Origin: a phage
Length of the DNA: 64,000 nucleotides
NCBI GenBank assembly: GCA_018015315.1
Contig: GCA_018015315.1_3629.1
Reading direction: 5' to 3' (one strand)
Part shown: positions 2,459 to 36,314 of the stretch, piece after piece
How positions within the stretch are numbered: the first letter of the stretch is position 1
Layout of the letters: every line of letters starts with the position of its first letter
Translations under genes and position numbers: made by a program
The notes under the pieces: generated by a model
The model's input: the letters and a program-made list of their open reading frames with translations, nothing else
What the model was told of the DNA's origin: nothing
Databases searched by the model: none

Positions 2459-3082
2459 TTATGAAAAACTCATCTCGCCAGATTCATCGACATCAAACCG
2501 CCAGTCGTTGGCCTGGATGAGGCCGATCAAGTTCTCTGCCGTGAACTGTTCAAGATATGCCTCTTCAAGGCTTGCGTAAACCTTGCAAGATAGCTCCCGC
2601 ACCGTCTCGGTGATCAACTCTTCCAGCTCTTCCACTTTGTCTTCTTGTTTGGCGGTCAGATCCAGCCAGGTAGCATCAATATACCCGTTGATAGTATTTT
2701 CGTGACTATAGCGGCTGTATGCGTCACGTTCAACACTGGCTGATAGCTCGCCATCATGCATTGTTCCGAACAAGTGACGGATTGAGCGGAACTTAGTCAG
2801 CGCCTTGACTTTACGCAGGAATTTTTCCAGATCTACATTTTCAGCGCTAATTGATGCACCGTCGCCCTGACACCAAAAGCCGGACCAATGTACTTCAGTA
2901 TCTTCAAGGCCATACTCTGGAAAAACATATTCTTTATAGTATTCAATTACACTTTCTGCGAAAAAGTTATCACCGCTATTTTCTTCCCTTTCGCGGACCA
3001 TTTCAACGGCTTTTTCTTTTTGTTCGTCGGTCAGCACGTCGAAAGATAAATTGTAACCTGCAGTAATGTTAACGGTAGTCAT
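2459..3082 (-). CDS. hypothetical acidic protein (207 aa)
   Basis: ORF track; downstream of promoter 3142-3169 and a 5' stem-loop; motif FWCQGDGA not assigned to a family. Confidence 0.6.
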   Translation of the reverse strand: MTTVNITAGYNLSFDVLTDEQKEKAVEMVREREENSGDNFFAESVIEYYKEYVFPEYGLEDTEVHWSGFWCQGDGASISAENVDLEKFLRKVKALTKFRSIRHLFGTMHDGELSASVERDAYSRYSHENTINGYIDATWLDLTAKQEDKVEELEELITETVRELSCKVYASLEEAYLEQFTAENLIGLIQANDWRFDVDESGEMSFS

Positions 3083-3141
3083 GATATTTTCTCCTGTTTT
3101 CTTTTAAGTGGTGGCGGGAATTGTTCCCGCCTATGTGGTTA

Positions 3142-3169
3142 AGTATACTTGTTTAATCTTACTTGTCAA
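3142..3169 (-). promoter_or_regulatory. sigma70-type early promoter
   Basis: -35 TTGACA, 16-nt spacer, -10 TATACT; A/T-rich upstream; 5' stem-loop GGCGGGAA-ttg-TTCCCGCC at 3113-3131. Confidence 0.6.
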
Positions 3170-3419
3170 CACTATTTTTTAAATTATTGTGGCGTAAAAA
3201 GTTCAAGATCTCTTCAACATTGTCAACACGGCGGCAATTTTTGAACGCTACCAATTGCCCCAGGATTTTAATCACCGGGCGGCCCTGGCAGTAGCCTTGA
3301 AGAAAGCGCGCCTTAACTTTATCGGTGGAACTATCACGCCACCAAACCGCTTTATTGTTGCAGTAGTAAAAATTATTCAGGACTACATCAACTTTATCAA
3401 AATTTTTTAATTTACGCAT
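3159..3419 (-). CDS. hypothetical protein (86 aa)
   Basis: ORF track; promoter 3453-3480 upstream. Confidence 0.5.
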   Translation of the reverse strand: MRKLKNFDKVDVVLNNFYYCNNKAVWWRDSSTDKVKARFLQGYCQGRPVIKILGQLVAFKNCRRVDNVEEILNFLRHNNLKNSVDK

Positions 3420-3452
3420 GGTGTTTACTCCTTCTCTCGTTTAGATGCGGTT

Positions 3453-3480
3453 AGTATACCCTAGCTATTCCAGATGTCAA
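3453..3480 (-). promoter_or_regulatory. sigma70-type early promoter
   Basis: -35 TTGACA, 16-nt spacer, -10 TATACT. Confidence 0.55.
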
Positions 3481-3483
3481 GCC

Positions 3484-3654
3484 TTAAATTAAATCACTGT
3501 CAAAATAAACTGCTTCATTTTCATCAATGATCTCAATCTTTTTCTTTCCTAGCTCTAGGACCATGTACCAGGCTTGATCCTGAGCGGCGTCGAGATTATC
3601 ATACCATGCAATATTAACGCCTTTTTCTGTTACGTAAAACATTTTATTTTCCAT
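3484..3654 (-). CDS. hypothetical small protein (56 aa)
   Basis: Hand-translated MENKMFYVTEKGVNIAWYDNLDAAQDQAWYMVLELGKKKIEIIDENEAVYFDSDLI; SD AAGGGGAA; below ORF-track size cutoff. Confidence 0.35.
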   Translation of the reverse strand: MENKMFYVTEKGVNIAWYDNLDAAQDQAWYMVLELGKKKIEIIDENEAVYFDSDLI

Positions 3655-3665
3655 GATGTTTCCCC

Positions 3666-3764
3666 TTATTTGGAATTGCTAATGATAAAGCCTGCAAGCA
3701 AACAACCTATAACAAAACATAGGCCGCACATTATTAGTGGATTTTTAATCAGCTCGGTTAGCAT
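3666..3764 (-). CDS. small hydrophobic peptide (32 aa)
   Basis: Hand-translated MLTELIKNPLIMCGLCFVIGCLLAGFIISNSK with SD GGAGG; stop overlaps SD of next gene. Confidence 0.25.
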   Translation of the reverse strand: MLTELIKNPLIMCGLCFVIGCLLAGFIISNSK

Positions 3765-3769
3765 TTTAT

Positions 3770-3982
3770 TTACGCCTCCAATGTCATGATCTCGAACCTG
3801 GCTATAATAATCCCTACATCCACAAAGCATACAGGATCAACCATCTGGTTACATATAACCAGATGATCATCTTCCTCGTCGATGTACCAGTCATTATTGG
3901 CCTGTATTTCGTCCAGGTCATAGTAATGGCCTGCTTTGTATTTGCATTGTGCCTTGTAGTTAGAAAAATCGCAATAGACCAT
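3770..3982 (-). CDS. hypothetical protein (about 70 aa)
   Basis: ORF 3770..4000 with likely start MVYCDFSNYK after SD AGGAGA. Confidence 0.45.
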   Translation of the reverse strand: MVYCDFSNYKAQCKYKAGHYYDLDEIQANNDWYIDEEDDHLVICNQMVDPVCFVDVGIIIARFEIMTLEA

Positions 3983-31764: not shown

Positions 31765-32660
31765 ACCCTCGCATAAATTAAACTTGTATCAGTATACTTC
31801 TTTAATGGGTAAATATCCTGTCCATAGATGCAATCATTAAACACCTCATCTACCCAAAGGCTACACTTATATCCCATCATTTCTAAAACACCCATCTCTT
31901 CTTCGGTAAACTTATCACCGCTCTTGCAAGATGTCAATACCTCATTCTGAACTCTTGCTACCTCGAAGCGGTTATTGGAAATATCGCTATTGGCGATCAA
32001 ATACTCACCTAGAGGGTGTGCGGCATTAAAGATGCACAGTGGACGGCTGACGTAATAGTCTCCGGGTGTATAAAAATTGTTGAGGTCTTTCACTAGAACA
32101 TTCTTATCAGTCACTTCATTTATAACATCATGCATATCGCACATCTTTATATGTTTGAGGATTCCATCCCCCGTCACAAAATAAAAACTTGCTGAGACAC
32201 TTTCGGCATAGATCTTACTAGATCCGTTGTAGTTGTATTTTACTCGGATGCTAACGGGGGTTTTTCCTGTCGCGTTAGCCATCATCCAAAGAAATGGCAG
32301 CTCATACTTCTCCTCTGAGGAAACAAAAGGTGAGGTAGCCAGAGATCGAAAACCTCCAGAGAAGTTGAAAGTTACAGAACCGCTCCGGCGGTATGATACC
32401 GCGTATTCTACTTTTATATCGACGTACCCATTGGAATAGGTGTGTCCTTCATTATCTAAATATGTCCACTTATCAGACCCAGATACCAATCTACGCTCAA
32501 TAACCTTCATCACTACAGGAATTAGTGGGTTGGTACAAACCGCTTTTGAAGTAGCTTTATCATCTAAAGCCTCGTAAATTGCAGAAAGGATGTCCCCAGC
32601 TGAAAGATTGGTTGTTATGTCCTGTTTCCACCGCGTACTAAAACTGTTAAGATTTGCCAT
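31761..32660 (-). CDS. hypothetical protein (299 aa)
   Basis: ORF track; driven by minus promoter 32701-32729; SD AGGAG. Confidence 0.6.
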   Translation of the reverse strand: MANLNSFSTRWKQDITTNLSAGDILSAIYEALDDKATSKAVCTNPLIPVVMKVIERRLVSGSDKWTYLDNEGHTYSNGYVDIKVEYAVSYRRSGSVTFNFSGGFRSLATSPFVSSEEKYELPFLWMMANATGKTPVSIRVKYNYNGSSKIYAESVSASFYFVTGDGILKHIKMCDMHDVINEVTDKNVLVKDLNNFYTPGDYYVSRPLCIFNAAHPLGEYLIANSDISNNRFEVARVQNEVLTSCKSGDKFTEEEMGVLEMMGYKCSLWVDEVFNDCIYGQDIYPLKKYTDTSLIYARV

Positions 32661-32700
32661 GAGGGAGTGCTCCTATGTTAGTTTTATTTCTAATGGGTGC

Positions 32701-32729
32701 ACTATATCGGAGATTTAGAGTAAAGTCAA
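32701..32729 (-). promoter_or_regulatory. sigma70-type promoter, leftward arm of divergent pair
   Basis: -35 TTGACT, 17-nt spacer, -10 TATAGT; reads into gene 31761..32660. Confidence 0.5.
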
Positions 32730-32742
32730 CACGTTTTTGATG

Positions 32743-32771
32743 TTGACATCTATTGAAACAATTGATACGAT
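32743..32771 (+). promoter_or_regulatory. sigma70-type promoter, rightward arm of divergent pair
   Basis: -35 TTGACA, 17-nt spacer, -10 TACGAT; reads into HNH-like gene. Confidence 0.5.
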
Positions 32772-32802
32772 TTCTTCACTTACAGAGCACGAGAGACAAC
32801 TC

Positions 32803-33780
32803 ATGAATCTTGAAAAATATTATACACCAGAAGAGTTAGAGCGCCTGCTCAAAAAATATAGACGCAAACAGAATAATGCACGGAAACGAGATATAGAGTT
32901 CGACCTGTCATGGGAAGAATACCTCCTATTTGGTAAAAAACTTTTAGGAGATGGAGTATGCGACTATACCCTTATACCTTTTGACATGCACACAGATGAA
33001 AACGGGCTGGGAAATCCTTTCTACCCATCTCTGGAGCGGATAGATGATGAAGGTCCTTATGCGGTTGATAACTGTTGTGTAGTGGGATTGAGATGCAACT
33101 CTCTAAAGGACTGTCTGGTAGATAAAAAGACTGCAGTCTTGATTAAAGACGAAACTGATCGAAAAATTGTCCAGCAGATGATGCTCCACCTGAGCGAAGA
33201 GCGTATGGAGAAATTGAAAGGTGATTATACTTTTGAAGATTTCATCTTGCAATATGGAACGGAAGAGGATAAACTAGCACTCTTTGACGAAGAAGAGGAG
33301 GAAGATATGCTACCGATGTCTAAAGTTACTTATCGTGCACCCAAGAAGCACATTTCCGACATTGTAAACGAGCCTATCACAGAAGAGATTGAAGAAATGA
33401 CGCAACAGGTGCATGAAGAGGAAAAAGAGACTCAGGAGGTCGAAGAGGAGCTTACAGAAGAGGTTCCTGCACTACCTGATGATGTTGAGATTGCCAAAGC
33501 TTACACTTTCTATTGTCAAACGTTCTACGATGTAGGTATGAAAGTTGATCTGTCGTTCAGCCAATTTAAGAGTTCGTATATTCGCAAATGCTGTGCTTTA
33601 ACTGGTGAACGTCTTGGAGCTGGACTTAAACCCCTGTTGGTGACCGACTGGAATAAAGGTTTCACTAAAGGAAACTTTATGGTAGTATCTCCAATTATGG
33701 AGAAAGCTATGACAGATCTTATGAAGACCACCCGCATGACAATGACCGAGTTGGCAGGTATTTTCAAACACGTTAAATAA
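32803..33780 (+). CDS. HNH-endonuclease-like protein with two tandem degenerate HNH-type domains
   Basis: SLERIDDEGPYAVDNCCVVGLRCNSLK and weaker repeat VTDWNKGFTKGNFMVVSPIMEK; acidic linker carries internal SD+ATG (MSKVTYRA) inside the 29-bp inverted repeat; start set to MNLEKYY because track start overlaps promoter. Confidence 0.55.
   Translation: MNLEKYYTPEELERLLKKYRRKQNNARKRDIEFDLSWEEYLLFGKKLLGDGVCDYTLIPFDMHTDENGLGNPFYPSLERIDDEGPYAVDNCCVVGLRCNSLKDCLVDKKTAVLIKDETDRKIVQQMMLHLSEERMEKLKGDYTFEDFILQYGTEEDKLALFDEEEEEDMLPMSKVTYRAPKKHISDIVNEPITEEIEEMTQQVHEEEKETQEVEEELTEEVPALPDDVEIAKAYTFYCQTFYDVGMKVDLSFSQFKSSYIRKCCALTGERLGAGLKPLLVTDWNKGFTKGNFMVVSPIMEKAMTDLMKTTRMTMTELAGIFKHVK
33311..33339. repeat. 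29-bp perfect inverted repeat, right copy
   Basis: TACCGATGTCTAAAGTTACTTATCGTGCA inside HNH-like ORF, encoding LPMSKVTYRA after SD-like GAGGAGGAAGA. Confidence 0.85.
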
Positions 33781-33813
33781 TGACAGGGGCCAATGGCCCC
33801 TTCTGGAGTTTTA

Positions 33814-35274
33814 ATGGATATCAGAAGTTCAGAAATCATTGCCTCACAAAAAGATGATGCCCTGAGAATGTTGCAGGCTGCACGTATGTATCTCCTTGAA
33901 AAGCTGCCGTTTTATGGCACACTGCTGTCAGGATTGCAGTTCGTAGAAAACCATACATGGTGCTCCACCATGGCAACCGACCATAAACGCATCTATTACA
34001 GTCCTGAGTTCATTATGGGGTTGGCTGATGAACGTAAGGCTATTCTTAAGGCTTCTCTAACTGACGAGCAGTTTGAGATGGCTGAGGTTTTCTATTCCCC
34101 CAAATCTGTGAAAGAGGTGGCCTTTCTTCTGTCGCATGAGGTGGGGCATATTATCTGTGATCACCTGGTCCGTGGTAAAAGCTTTGAGCCGGAACTGTTC
34201 AATATTGCTTGTGATCACGTTATCAACACAGGACTTGTGGTTGACTTTAGCAAGCCTCCTTGTGTTTTCTTCCCGAAGGGGAAAAGCACTACGTTCGTGA
34301 AAGGTAAGCCTTTTGGCTTCTTAGCCAGCTGCTACTGCGATATGAAGTTTCATGGATGGATTGCTGAGAACGTTTATGCAGTTCTTGATAAGCAAAGAGA
34401 TCAGAATAACGGTAAAAGTAAGAACGGTAAAGGTGAGAACTCTCAAGGTGATAAGCGACAAACAGATGATCACATGAGTGGGAACGGTGGCACCAGTGAT
34501 GATCTTGGAAAAGCTATAGGGTATGATCAGCCACAACCTGTAATCAGCCAATCTGATAAAGATCAGGCCATGCAGGACTCTGGTGATATGCTGGAGGCAG
34601 CAATGCAAGCGTCCGGAGGCCGTTGCCCCGAGGCGGTGCGTGAGTTTGTCAAGAACAGAGGTAAGCCTGTAATCAACTATATAGACATCATTAAGCAACG
34701 CATGTTGTCTAAACGAAAGGCTGAACTGACCTACAGAAAACCTGGTCGCCGATCTGGGTCTTTGACCAGCACAATGCGAAAAGTTGGGGCTATAAACAAG
34801 AACCAGCACGTTATTGTTCCTGGTCGTAATCCGGAAAACACTATAGATATTGTGGTGGCTTTAGACGTTTCTGGCTCGATCTCTCAAAGAACTTTAAAGA
34901 AAATGTTCAATGAAATCACCGGATTGTGCAATCTGTATAAAGAGTTTAAGGTTACAATGTTCTGTTGGTCAACTGAGGTTGGAGAGGTTAAAGTATACAC
35001 TCGCGGCAACATAGACGAGATGATTAACTATGAGGTCCACTCAACATGGGGCACAACAGCTGCTTGCGTGTTCGAGTATCTGGATGCCAACATACCGAAT
35101 GCAAAAGATGTCATCGTCCTGACCGACCTATACTTTGAGCATAACTTTGAACAAAAGGTTGTTGACAACAAGTGGAAAAAGTACGATACTTTATGGGTTC
35201 TAACCGAAGGGTATAATAAAAATTATATCCCGAGCTTTGGGAAAACTGTGGAATTAATCGAGTACGCTAAGTAA
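33814..35274 (+). CDS. metallopeptidase-like + von Willebrand factor A domain protein
   Basis: HExxH motif LSHEVGHIICDH; MIDAS motif VVALDVSGSIS; start MDIRSSEII with GGAG SD. Confidence 0.75.
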   Translation: MDIRSSEIIASQKDDALRMLQAARMYLLEKLPFYGTLLSGLQFVENHTWCSTMATDHKRIYYSPEFIMGLADERKAILKASLTDEQFEMAEVFYSPKSVKEVAFLLSHEVGHIICDHLVRGKSFEPELFNIACDHVINTGLVVDFSKPPCVFFPKGKSTTFVKGKPFGFLASCYCDMKFHGWIAENVYAVLDKQRDQNNGKSKNGKGENSQGDKRQTDDHMSGNGGTSDDLGKAIGYDQPQPVISQSDKDQAMQDSGDMLEAAMQASGGRCPEAVREFVKNRGKPVINYIDIIKQRMLSKRKAELTYRKPGRRSGSLTSTMRKVGAINKNQHVIVPGRNPENTIDIVVALDVSGSISQRTLKKMFNEITGLCNLYKEFKVTMFCWSTEVGEVKVYTRGNIDEMINYEVHSTWGTTAACVFEYLDANIPNAKDVIVLTDLYFEHNFEQKVVDNKWKKYDTLWVLTEGYNKNYIPSFGKTVELIEYAK

Positions 35275-35289
35275 GAGAGGAGGTTATTT

Positions 35290-35553
35290 ATGGCAACAGA
35301 GTTAAAATTTGCATCAAACCGTAAAACTAAGAAGTATCTGTCCTCAGTAGCTCCAGGCACTGTGGTGATGTTTGTTGATGAACTTGGGGATGTGAATACA
35401 GCACTTGTTGTAAAATCACATCCTGCAAACATATATGTTGGGGTATTTGACCTGTTCAGAAAGGTGTTTGTAGAACTACCTCACAGTTTGGTTGTTACAG
35501 AAATGGATGCCTGCATAGAAATTCTTGGCGAAGTTATGGTGGAGGAACAATAA
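35290..35553 (+). CDS. paralog 1 of tandem small-gene array (87 aa)
   Basis: Shares GTVV...FDL...LP...VTE.D..I.ILGE pattern with next three genes; SD GAGGAGG. Confidence 0.55.
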   Translation: MATELKFASNRKTKKYLSSVAPGTVVMFVDELGDVNTALVVKSHPANIYVGVFDLFRKVFVELPHSLVVTEMDACIEILGEVMVEEQ

Positions 35554-35819
35554 TGGCTACTAGCATTGTATTCAATTCTAAGGTGAAGAACAAAAAGCGT
35601 GCAGACAGTTTTCCGTGTGGGACCGTGGTAAGTTGCGACGGAGACGGCATTCAAAACATAGTTATGATTGTCAAAACAGGAGAACATTGTGTGTGGGGGT
35701 TCGATTTAGAAAATAATGAGTTGTACGATCTGCCGCCAAACATGAAAGTTACAGAGCTTGACACCAAAATTACCATCCTTGGAGAGGCAAGCTATTCAAA
35801 AGAAGGAGGAGAACAATGA
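35553..35819 (+). CDS. paralog 2 of tandem small-gene array (88 aa)
   Basis: Pattern as paralog 1; start overlaps previous stop. Confidence 0.55.
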   Translation: MATSIVFNSKVKNKKRADSFPCGTVVSCDGDGIQNIVMIVKTGEHCVWGFDLENNELYDLPPNMKVTELDTKITILGEASYSKEGGEQ

Positions 35820-36079
35820 CCACAAAAATCACTATCGCAGAACCGAAAGCTAACACTCAACCTATCGAAAAGTTTAAGTGCGGTGAGGTGGTAACATTCA
35901 CACCAGATAATGAAGATGCTAAGATTTTCGCAATGGTCACAGCTGAGTGGATGTGTGACAACACCACACAGGTTCTGCGTTTTGACACCTATCTTACCGA
36001 CGAAATCAGGAACGACAAGATCGTGACTGGTGTGGATACTGAGATTGTTTTCTACAAGAGCTTTTTAGAGGGTTTCTGA
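35816..36079 (+). CDS. paralog 3 of tandem small-gene array (87 aa)
   Basis: Pattern as paralog 1; 4-nt overlap. Confidence 0.55.
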   Translation: MTTKITIAEPKANTQPIEKFKCGEVVTFTPDNEDAKIFAMVTAEWMCDNTTQVLRFDTYLTDEIRNDKIVTGVDTEIVFYKSFLEGF

Positions 36080-36080
36080 T

Positions 36081-36314
36081 ATGGCAAAAATTCGTAAATT
36101 ATCCAGCAATCAGGTTGTGAAAGACTTTGAATCTGGAGAGATTCTGTATGTTCGTGATGCAGATGACGAATGTGAAGATCTTGTTATGTTGGTGGGGCAC
36201 GCTGAGGACGGATGCATCCAAGCTGTTTTTCTTGAAACAGCTATGGTGCACTGGATAGAGCTGGACCTGAAAGCACGAAAACCTAAAGCAGAAATCCTGA
36301 TTTACGAAGATTAA
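36081..36314 (+). CDS. paralog 4 of tandem small-gene array (77 aa, more divergent)
   Basis: Weaker match to the paralog pattern. Confidence 0.5.
   Translation: MAKIRKLSSNQVVKDFESGEILYVRDADDECEDLVMLVGHAEDGCIQAVFLETAMVHWIELDLKARKPKAEILIYED

Follow-up and report, generated by a model that had tools for sequence, protein, structure and literature searches.

Is the phage gene at positions 32,803 to 33,780 of the stretch studied here (64,000 nucleotides of GenBank assembly GCA_018015315.1, contig GCA_018015315.1_3629.1; hereafter the window) a homing endonuclease in decay, an anti-sigma factor, or something else? The window belongs to an rV5-like E. coli myovirus (Vequintavirus): its region 32000-36000 is 98.6% identical to phage LL12 and 98.4% identical to phage Murica, and of the 119 phage records that match it, 117 span 80% or more of its length. 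The ends of the coding sequence (CDS) are identical in the annotations of both phages, where the product is called 'anti-sigma factor' (LL12) or 'HNH endonuclease' (RefSeq Murica); the former is the label in most database records. An earlier note on this DNA had read the gene as two tandem HNH-like domains, the second degenerate, and had proposed either a duplicated or decaying homing endonuclease or a nuclease joined to a DNA-binding decoy. We conclude from sequence comparison that the product is a relative of T4 Srd and not a decaying homing endonuclease. We further consider it on balance probable that it is an early host-takeover protein with tandem nuclease domains of the PacI type, of which the N-terminal one (N domain) would be live and the C-terminal one (C domain) a dead, built-in partner.

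Two copies of one fold in a single chain

The two halves of this 325-residue protein are homologous. Profiles were built from strictly disjoint N and C segments of 95 two-domain relatives and compared with hhalign, which aligned N residues 14-109 to C residues 229-310 (Prob 97.5%, E 8.8e-12). The similarity is visible with deep profiles only, as neither BLASTP nor hhalign of narrow profiles (6 sequences; number of effective sequences, Neff, 1.5) detected any between the halves. The C-domain profile also matches single N-type domains of unrelated proteins (3e-10 for P0098 and 2e-10 for P0125) as well as the N domain of T4 Srd (2e-9 with HMMER, 6e-8 with hhalign). The C-terminal half is therefore indeed, as the earlier note had it, a weaker repeat of the N-terminal half, a repeat without the catalytic residues.

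An AlphaFold2 model of the full-length protein, made with a 115-sequence alignment, has a mean predicted local distance difference test score (pLDDT) of 88.7 and a beta-beta-alpha unit in each domain, so that the HNH fold, on which the earlier note had staked its idea, is predicted for both halves. The C domain modelled alone reaches a pLDDT of 95.5 and a predicted template modelling score (pTM) of 0.82. DSSP finds the beta-beta-alpha-metal fold's elements in both domains, as strands 75-79 and 91-95 with helix 96-107 in the N domain and as strands 278-280 and 292-294 with helix 297-310 in the C domain. Foldseek against the PDB ranks PacI first, both for the full-length model (E 0.057, prob 1.00) and for the C domain alone (E 0.081, prob 0.94, template modelling score 0.56); Cas9-HNH, Gme-HNH, McrA, colicins, endonuclease VII, Hpy99I and Cap5 follow in the lists. 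By the hhalign alignment and this top structural match, the single open reading frame (ORF) with two tandem HNH-like domains is one HNH-superfamily fold present twice. The structure matches in BFVD included Srd-like 'anti-sigma factors' and giant-virus HNH proteins, one of them from a Pandoravirus, which fits the viral make-up of the group to which PacI belongs (group 20, below).

The family is large. An exhaustive profile search of 1.84 billion representatives returned 760 proteins at E <=0.001, each of them a cluster representative. Most are 230-350 amino acids (aa) long and carry both domains; some have an N-type domain alone, often behind another N-terminal module, and a few (P0129, P0142, P0149, P0168) have two intact-looking N-type domains in tandem. 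In single-domain relatives of 165-215 aa the domain stands behind an N-terminal module of 55-90 aa with weak integrase-arm or zinc-ribbon matches, and several fusion architectures occur across the family (relatives P0129, P0142, P0149, P0168, P0131, P0127). A second, word-indexed homologue search, for which the 115-sequence alignment was the query, found almost only close relatives and contributed little.

The PacI-type site in the two domains

The relation of the N domain to PacI is seen in sequence as well as in fold. A profile of 60 N domains, searched against the sequences of the PDB, gave PacI (3ldy) as its only meaningful match (E 0.0025); profile positions 11-98 align to PacI 28-123, and these ~96 aligned residues include the N-terminal helices, the similarity extending over the whole domain. 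Searches of the PDB with the single sequence and with the C-domain profile gave noise only. PacI (PDB 3ldy/3m7k) is the sole meaningful solved-structure match by sequence and the best by fold for both the full-length model and the C domain. This enzyme has no catalytic His, using instead a Tyr of its omega loop, and an Asp and an Asn are the ligands of its single metal (PMC5714182; PMC4081073). In His-Me finger 'group 20' (Jablonska et al. 2017), which is predominantly viral (PMC5714182), PacI is the type member.

The alignment pairs C53 with PacI C63, E78 with D92, R79 with R93, Y86 with Y100, N90 with N104, N99 with N113 and K102 with K116, and the pairs from E78 onward make up a PacI-like site: an acidic residue and Arg (D/E-R) ending strand 1, an omega-loop Tyr, a structural Asn, and a metal Asn plus a Lys in the helix. 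It falls within the HNH-like signature of residues 76-102, SLERIDDEGPYAVDNCCVVGLRCNSLK. Among the 95 two-domain relatives, whose average identity is ~25-30%, E/D78, R79, Y86 and N90 are each found in 95 of 95, N99 in 93 (the other 2 have His) and K102 in 92. Both metal ligands are present in the N domain, namely the acidic residue before the general-base position and the Asn (or His) in the helix. The general-base position itself holds Arg rather than His in 95/95 two-domain relatives and in 153 of 156 N-type domains. The 'good HNH signature' of the earlier note is for this reason a misnomer: an invariant Arg occupies the place of the general-base His, and the site is of the PacI type, with Tyr. 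Since Arg at this position is the PacI pattern, it gives no sign of decay. Y86 lies between the strands, is invariant in all 156 domains and aligns to Y100, the sole Tyr of the PacI loop; by position it is the omega-loop Tyr that stands in for the catalytic His in group 20, and its catalytic role is a prediction. Canonical HNH nucleases (T4 endonuclease VII, I-HmuI, colicin DNases, Cas9 HNH) resemble the N domain in their beta-beta-alpha-metal fold, with an acidic residue and Asn as metal ligands; they differ in having a general-base His where the Arg stands here, and they rank below PacI in the structure lists.

The C domain has lost this site. Its equivalents of the catalytic residues are L279, V280, F287, E300 and M303 in our protein, and in the 95 relatives they are aromatic or aliphatic (279), V/I/L (280), V/I/F/L (287), Q/G/A (300) and L/M (303). 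Neither metal ligand is left; of the PacI-type catalytic set only the structural Asn is retained, in 95/95. The fold residues C264, T/S267, D282 and N291 are kept. Here the earlier note was right that the second domain is degenerate, and because the loss is common to all 95 two-domain relatives we regard it as ancient and maintained.

Degenerate does not mean decaying. In Nei-Gojobori estimates from unsaturated pairs only, the ratio of nonsynonymous to synonymous substitution rates (dN/dS) is 0.06-0.08 in the N domain, 0.00-0.05 in the C domain and 0.14-0.42 in the linker between them. Purifying selection is strong on both domains, more so on the C domain than anywhere else in the gene, and the linker alone is relaxed. 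Judged by its residues, the C domain is catalytically dead yet not decaying. In this it resembles Smad MH1 and the nuclease-like domain of Enpp, in which the fold has been kept under selection and the catalytic His/Tyr and metal ligands lost; there is no sequence relationship to either, and unlike them the C domain shares its chain with an apparently live domain, of which it is the tandem paralogue.

The same 95 proteins provide the main argument about the N domain. Because their C copies keep fold residues only, the residues that are invariant in their N copies must be kept for more than folding; these additional residues coincide with the metal, Tyr and phosphate set of PacI, and from this contrast we infer that the N domain is catalytically competent.

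Nuclease, regulator or mobile element

The gene most likely encodes a metal-dependent nuclease or nucleic-acid-processing host-takeover factor, as far as its sequence can tell. The homology of the domains, their fold, the conservation of residues, selection, synteny and the relation to PacI and Srd we take as shown; in the mechanism that we propose, we infer catalytic activity, substrate, the pseudo-dimer role of the C copy and timing. The gene would have arisen when a nuclease domain of the PacI-type (histidine-less) beta-beta-alpha-metal kind was duplicated in tandem. In the N domain, E78 and N99 would be the ligands of a divalent metal ion, Y86, placed on the inter-strand loop, would replace the usual His as base or nucleophile, and R79 and K102 would hold the scissile phosphate, making the domain a one-metal, Tyr-assisted phosphodiesterase of the PacI type. 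The C copy, tethered to the N domain by a flexible acidic linker, would be an inactive in-chain stand-in for the second subunit of a PacI-like dimer and would help to bind a host protein or the substrate. Having a single active site, such a protein would be expected to cleave only one strand, or a single-stranded nucleic acid, and not to produce double-strand breaks. The pseudo-dimer idea is reasonable in that some relatives have two intact copies in one chain and PacI is a homodimer. A nuclease with an inactive partner domain is still the best reading of the gene, and to that extent the 'nuclease plus DNA-binding decoy' of the earlier note stands.

PacI itself, a type II restriction enzyme of 142 aa, acts as a homodimer and has two Cys4 zinc sites. 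Our protein departs from it in having two copies fused in one chain, one of them predicted to be competent, with a long helical and acidic linker inserted, and in having mostly lost the zinc ligands.

The relation to T4 Srd bears on both the proposed function and its main rival. T4 Srd (248 aa; gene at 3040-3786 on the minus strand of the T4 record) matches the N profile over residues 6-134 at 3e-21 and carries LERFD...GY..GN......YN; the motif common to both proteins can be written LER(I/F)D...GY..GN.....N, and identity within the domain that they share is low. Homology is confined to the N domain and is not full-length: hhalign gives a Prob of 0.07% for Srd residues 135-248 against the C domain, and we detected no similarity of these residues to either domain. 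T4 Srd is one PacI-type domain with an unrelated tail, where our protein has live and dead copies. Both genes come from large lytic myoviruses and lie in their early or host-takeover region. Since our N domain and the N-terminal half of T4 Srd are one module, a role in the early destruction of host nucleic acid seems the most likely.

Database families reflect the same relations under several names. The best match in PHROGs is phrog_3118 'HNH endonuclease', which is full-length (E 6.5e-113), and not phrog_1400. For the N half there are further matches, to phrog_3322 'endonuclease', phrog_1035 'endonuclease VII', phrog_4592 'decoy of host sigma70' and phrog_1400 'Srd anti-sigma factor', with values of 1e-10 to 2e-13 for the N domain against the 'endonuclease VII' and 'endonuclease' families. 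T4 Srd has phrog_1400 as its own family and cross-matches to 3322, 3118, 4592 and 1035. The search against HNH families that the earlier note had suggested gave a divided answer, with matches to the 'HNH endonuclease' and 'endonuclease' families of PHROGs and none in Pfam or NCBIfam. PADLOC had no match. One source names the cluster of P0013, a homologue 89% identical to our protein, 'type II restriction endonuclease', a third conflicting label, and one that agrees with the PacI similarity.

Several results weigh against the reading of the protein as a PacI-type nuclease with a dead partner. First, no Foldseek match in the PDB reaches E 0.001, the best being the 0.057 and 0.081 given above, so that our assignment of the fold depends on how consistent the lists are, together with the sequence evidence; in addition the pTM of the full-length model is only 0.58, which concerns the packing of N against C. 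Second, no real match came from Pfam or NCBIfam for the whole protein, its halves, ten single- or double-domain relatives or the 60 N domains, and the Pfam HNH models matched none of 60 family members even at E 10. Third, the scaffold differs from that of PacI, whose two Cys4 zinc sites are missing. Of the PacI Cys residues in the aligned motifs (C63, C66, C109 and C112, which we assume to form one zinc site), Cys is found here only at C53, plus C98 in the protein's own clade, and C53 alone is conserved family-wide. Fourth, the C-terminal half of T4 Srd is unrelated to the C domain, and Srd, the one member of the family that has been studied, is described in the passages on it in PMC4980113 and PMC13232886 as an RNase E activator and not as a nuclease.

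This last point leads to the best-surviving alternative, which we regard as possible though unlikely: that the protein is a non-catalytic regulator of the Srd type. HNH-derived scaffolds would then bind a host protein (the catalytic half of RNase E, or a sigma factor or RNA polymerase), perhaps RNA as well, and the conserved Arg, Tyr and Asn would serve binding, not cleavage. The N domain is after all the part held in common with T4 Srd, which reportedly binds RNase E at its N-terminal, catalytic half, stimulates it and increases host mRNA decay (Qi et al. 2015, according to those same passages); the C-terminal half of Srd is not common to the two proteins. The canonical catalytic His is absent, and inactive His-Me fingers reused for binding do exist, as in Smad MH1 and Enpp (PMC5714182), but the known ones lack both the His and a substitute Tyr (PMC5714182). 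In our family the full PacI-type set, both metal ligands included, is invariant at ~25% identity and is lost precisely in the C copy. The prevalence of 'anti-sigma factor' among database records would also favour a regulator, but that label goes back to an old 'postulated decoy' note for Srd in the T4 record, and no Pfam or NCBIfam anti-sigma model matches our protein. Srd and the rV5-like family are not mentioned in the 2017 classification of His-Me fingers (Jablonska et al. 2017), and in a limited literature, which is no proof of novelty, we found no paper tying Srd to HNH, His-Me or PacI.

A bolder form of the nuclease reading, for which we would claim rather less than an even chance and which we consider doubtful, would take in the whole 'Srd / anti-sigma factor / decoy of sigma-70' family, T4 Srd included, as active PacI-type, Tyr-dependent nucleases. 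The mRNA collapse ascribed to Srd might then need Srd's own catalytic site, and in two-domain members the dead copy would be an obligatory partner in cis and, if also made on its own from the internal start, perhaps a regulator. If this were true, Srd may make entry cuts or 5'-monophosphate ends for RNase E, beyond allosteric stimulation, and the dead copy in rV5-type members would turn a dimeric double-strand cutter into a single-site enzyme.

A further alternative concerns the linker, which varies in length and sequence among relatives. It is acidic (26 D/E against 6 K/R over residues 151-222) and disordered in the model from about residue 170 to 222, with a pLDDT of ~47-67 at residues 171-220. 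The earlier note had placed an internal start in it, and the linker does contain an in-frame ATG at 33307 (M169) preceded by a Shine-Dalgarno-like (SD) sequence. This codon might yield, beside the full-length protein, a second product of 157 aa comprising the linker and the dead C domain, and acting separately, for example as a competitor, an inhibitor or an immunity-like partner of the active N domain; such a scheme is compatible with either a nuclease or a regulator, and we think it improbable. At M169 the predicted anti-SD pairing reaches -12.0 kcal/mol, more than at any other place in the gene (the annotated start has -3.0), but runs of Glu codons (GAA/GAG) by themselves yield SD-like strings. 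The Met is kept in three close clades at 58-91% identity although the linker varies, and the L006 clade also has a pairing of -12.0; this weakens to -6.0 kcal/mol in L009 and L004, and an equivalent Met is absent from the linkers of the Mydovirus, Seunavirus and Henunavirus homologues (Mydo, SSE121 and the Erwinia phage). We also considered stand-alone C-domain proteins as support, and set them aside because both are probably artefacts: only 31 bases separate P0038 from the end of its 3.5-kb contig, where the gene call may have been truncated, and the N terminus of P0041 is aberrant. A scan of IMG/VR gave 6 loci, too few for a per-codon view of synonymous rates around the internal SD. The comparisons across clades do not support the internal start as a design feature.

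There remains the proposal of the earlier note, a free-standing HNH homing endonuclease, duplicated and decaying. On the plus strand, the gene comes first behind a divergent promoter region and stands upstream of a DUF2201/VWA (von Willebrand factor A) gene, and it has the same locus and neighbours in 117 of the 119 matching phage records. Relatives at 58% and 65% identity keep this synteny, as do phages of Mydovirus, Henunavirus and Seunavirus; across four genera of Vequintavirinae the gene belongs to the syntenic core, rather than showing the sporadic presence and absence of a homing element. Pfam detected none of the homing-type modules (NUMOD, AP2, helix-turn-helix) in this protein. The HNH-superfamily fold, the 'HNH endonuclease' label of the family in RefSeq and PHROGs, and the weak integrase-arm-type DNA-binding matches at the N termini of some single-domain relatives are what speak for homing, but the conserved synteny together with the dN/dS of 0.00-0.08 in both domains rules out a decaying or homing element, and with a 'degenerate' C domain that is ancient and maintained we give the proposal almost no credence.

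Restriction-like avoidance of short palindromes offers no trace of a recognition site. In the 64-kb window GTAC is found 122 times against 196 expected and CTAG 76 times against 129, and GGCGCC and TGGCCA are absent against ~8 expected each. This is generic avoidance that cannot be attributed to our protein; the skew is probably ordinary restriction avoidance, unlinked to the gene.

The gene in its genome, and what the family may tell

The features of the gene and its surroundings are collected in Table 1.

Table 1. Features in and around the Srd-like gene (window coordinates)
Feature	Position	Strand	Basis or remark
CDS, 325 aa, Srd-like two-domain protein (PHROG 3118)	32803..33780	+	ATG 32803, stop at 33780
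N-terminal PacI-type His-Me finger domain, aa 1-150: N-terminal helices, beta-beta-alpha core, helical extension	32803..33252	+	profile, Foldseek
Beta-beta-alpha-metal core of N domain, aa 75-107	33025..33123	+	DSSP on model
Predicted catalytic residues	E78 33034-36, R79 33037-39, Y86 33058-60, N90 33070-72, N99 33097-99, K102 33106-08	+	PacI alignment
Variable, acidic, disordered linker, ~aa 160-222	33280..33468	+	23 D/E vs 5 K/R; model
In-frame internal ATG (M169, ATG 33307-33309) after GAGGAGG, 5-nucleotide spacing; candidate start	33295..33309	+	anti-SD pairing
C-terminal degenerate copy of same fold, aa 223-325	33469..33777	+	hhalign, model, Foldseek
Beta-beta-alpha unit of C domain, aa 278-310	33634-33732	+	model
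Sigma-70-like promoter candidate, TTGACA-17-TG-TACGAT	32743..32771	+	consensus scan, 10/12 matches, extended -10
Divergent sigma-70-like promoter candidate	32729-32701	-	consensus scan
Perfect G+C-rich palindromic hairpin just 3' of stop codon	33785..33801	.	detected on minus strand, stem palindromic
Small ORFs of putative paralogue array	35290-35553, 35553-35819, 35816-36079, 36081-36314	+	'hypothetical protein' in LL12

The start of the gene deserves a comment, as a longer reading from ATG 32740 or TTG 32737 is available. The plus-strand promoter candidate overlaps this extension, and relatives at 58-65% identity show no conservation of it; for these two reasons ATG 32803 is the likely start and the longer reading unlikely. 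The two promoter candidates (together 32701-32771) stand back to back within a 142-bp intergenic region, where an inverted repeat with an 8-bp stem (32725-32747) covers both -35 boxes and could be a shared operator. The hairpin behind the stop codon is an annotated terminator in phage Murica, and here it is a possible attenuating terminator before the DUF2201/VWA gene.

That gene, on the plus strand to 35274, has an ambiguous start (33793 or 33814) and encodes a protein with DUF2201_N and DUF2201 (VWA-like, metallopeptidase-like); its label in RefSeq Murica, 'HNH endonuclease', looks like a mis-annotation. A MoxR-type ATPase, the usual partner of DUF2201/VWA proteins, is encoded on the opposite strand in LL12, upstream of the divergent promoter region. 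Beyond lie four small plus-strand ORFs in a row (35290-36314; 87, 88, 87 and 77 aa) that look like an array of tandem paralogues; the first two (35290-35819) are 40% identical (BLASTP E 1e-12), and the third and fourth were judged by eye only. We also note that 16 GenBank records named 'Campylobacter phage', with C. jejuni given as host, share ~98% identity in this region with rV5-like phages of E. coli, so that their host assignment looks doubtful.

More than 100 phage genomes carry this gene under the conflicting labels 'anti-sigma factor' and 'HNH endonuclease', and neither is accurate as it stands. If the protein is a binding factor only, our results amount to a modest annotation correction. 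As a PacI relative, it ties a large phage family (~760 cluster representatives) to the rare His-less, Tyr-dependent PacI type, hitherto described chiefly from a single restriction enzyme and from giant viruses. It also provides a concrete catalytic hypothesis for T4 Srd, that is, whether a conserved metal and Tyr site is needed for the stimulation of RNase E. The live and dead copies in tandem are a natural control that separates the residues of the fold from those of the function, and they may model the path from a dimeric nuclease to a single-chain, single-site enzyme.

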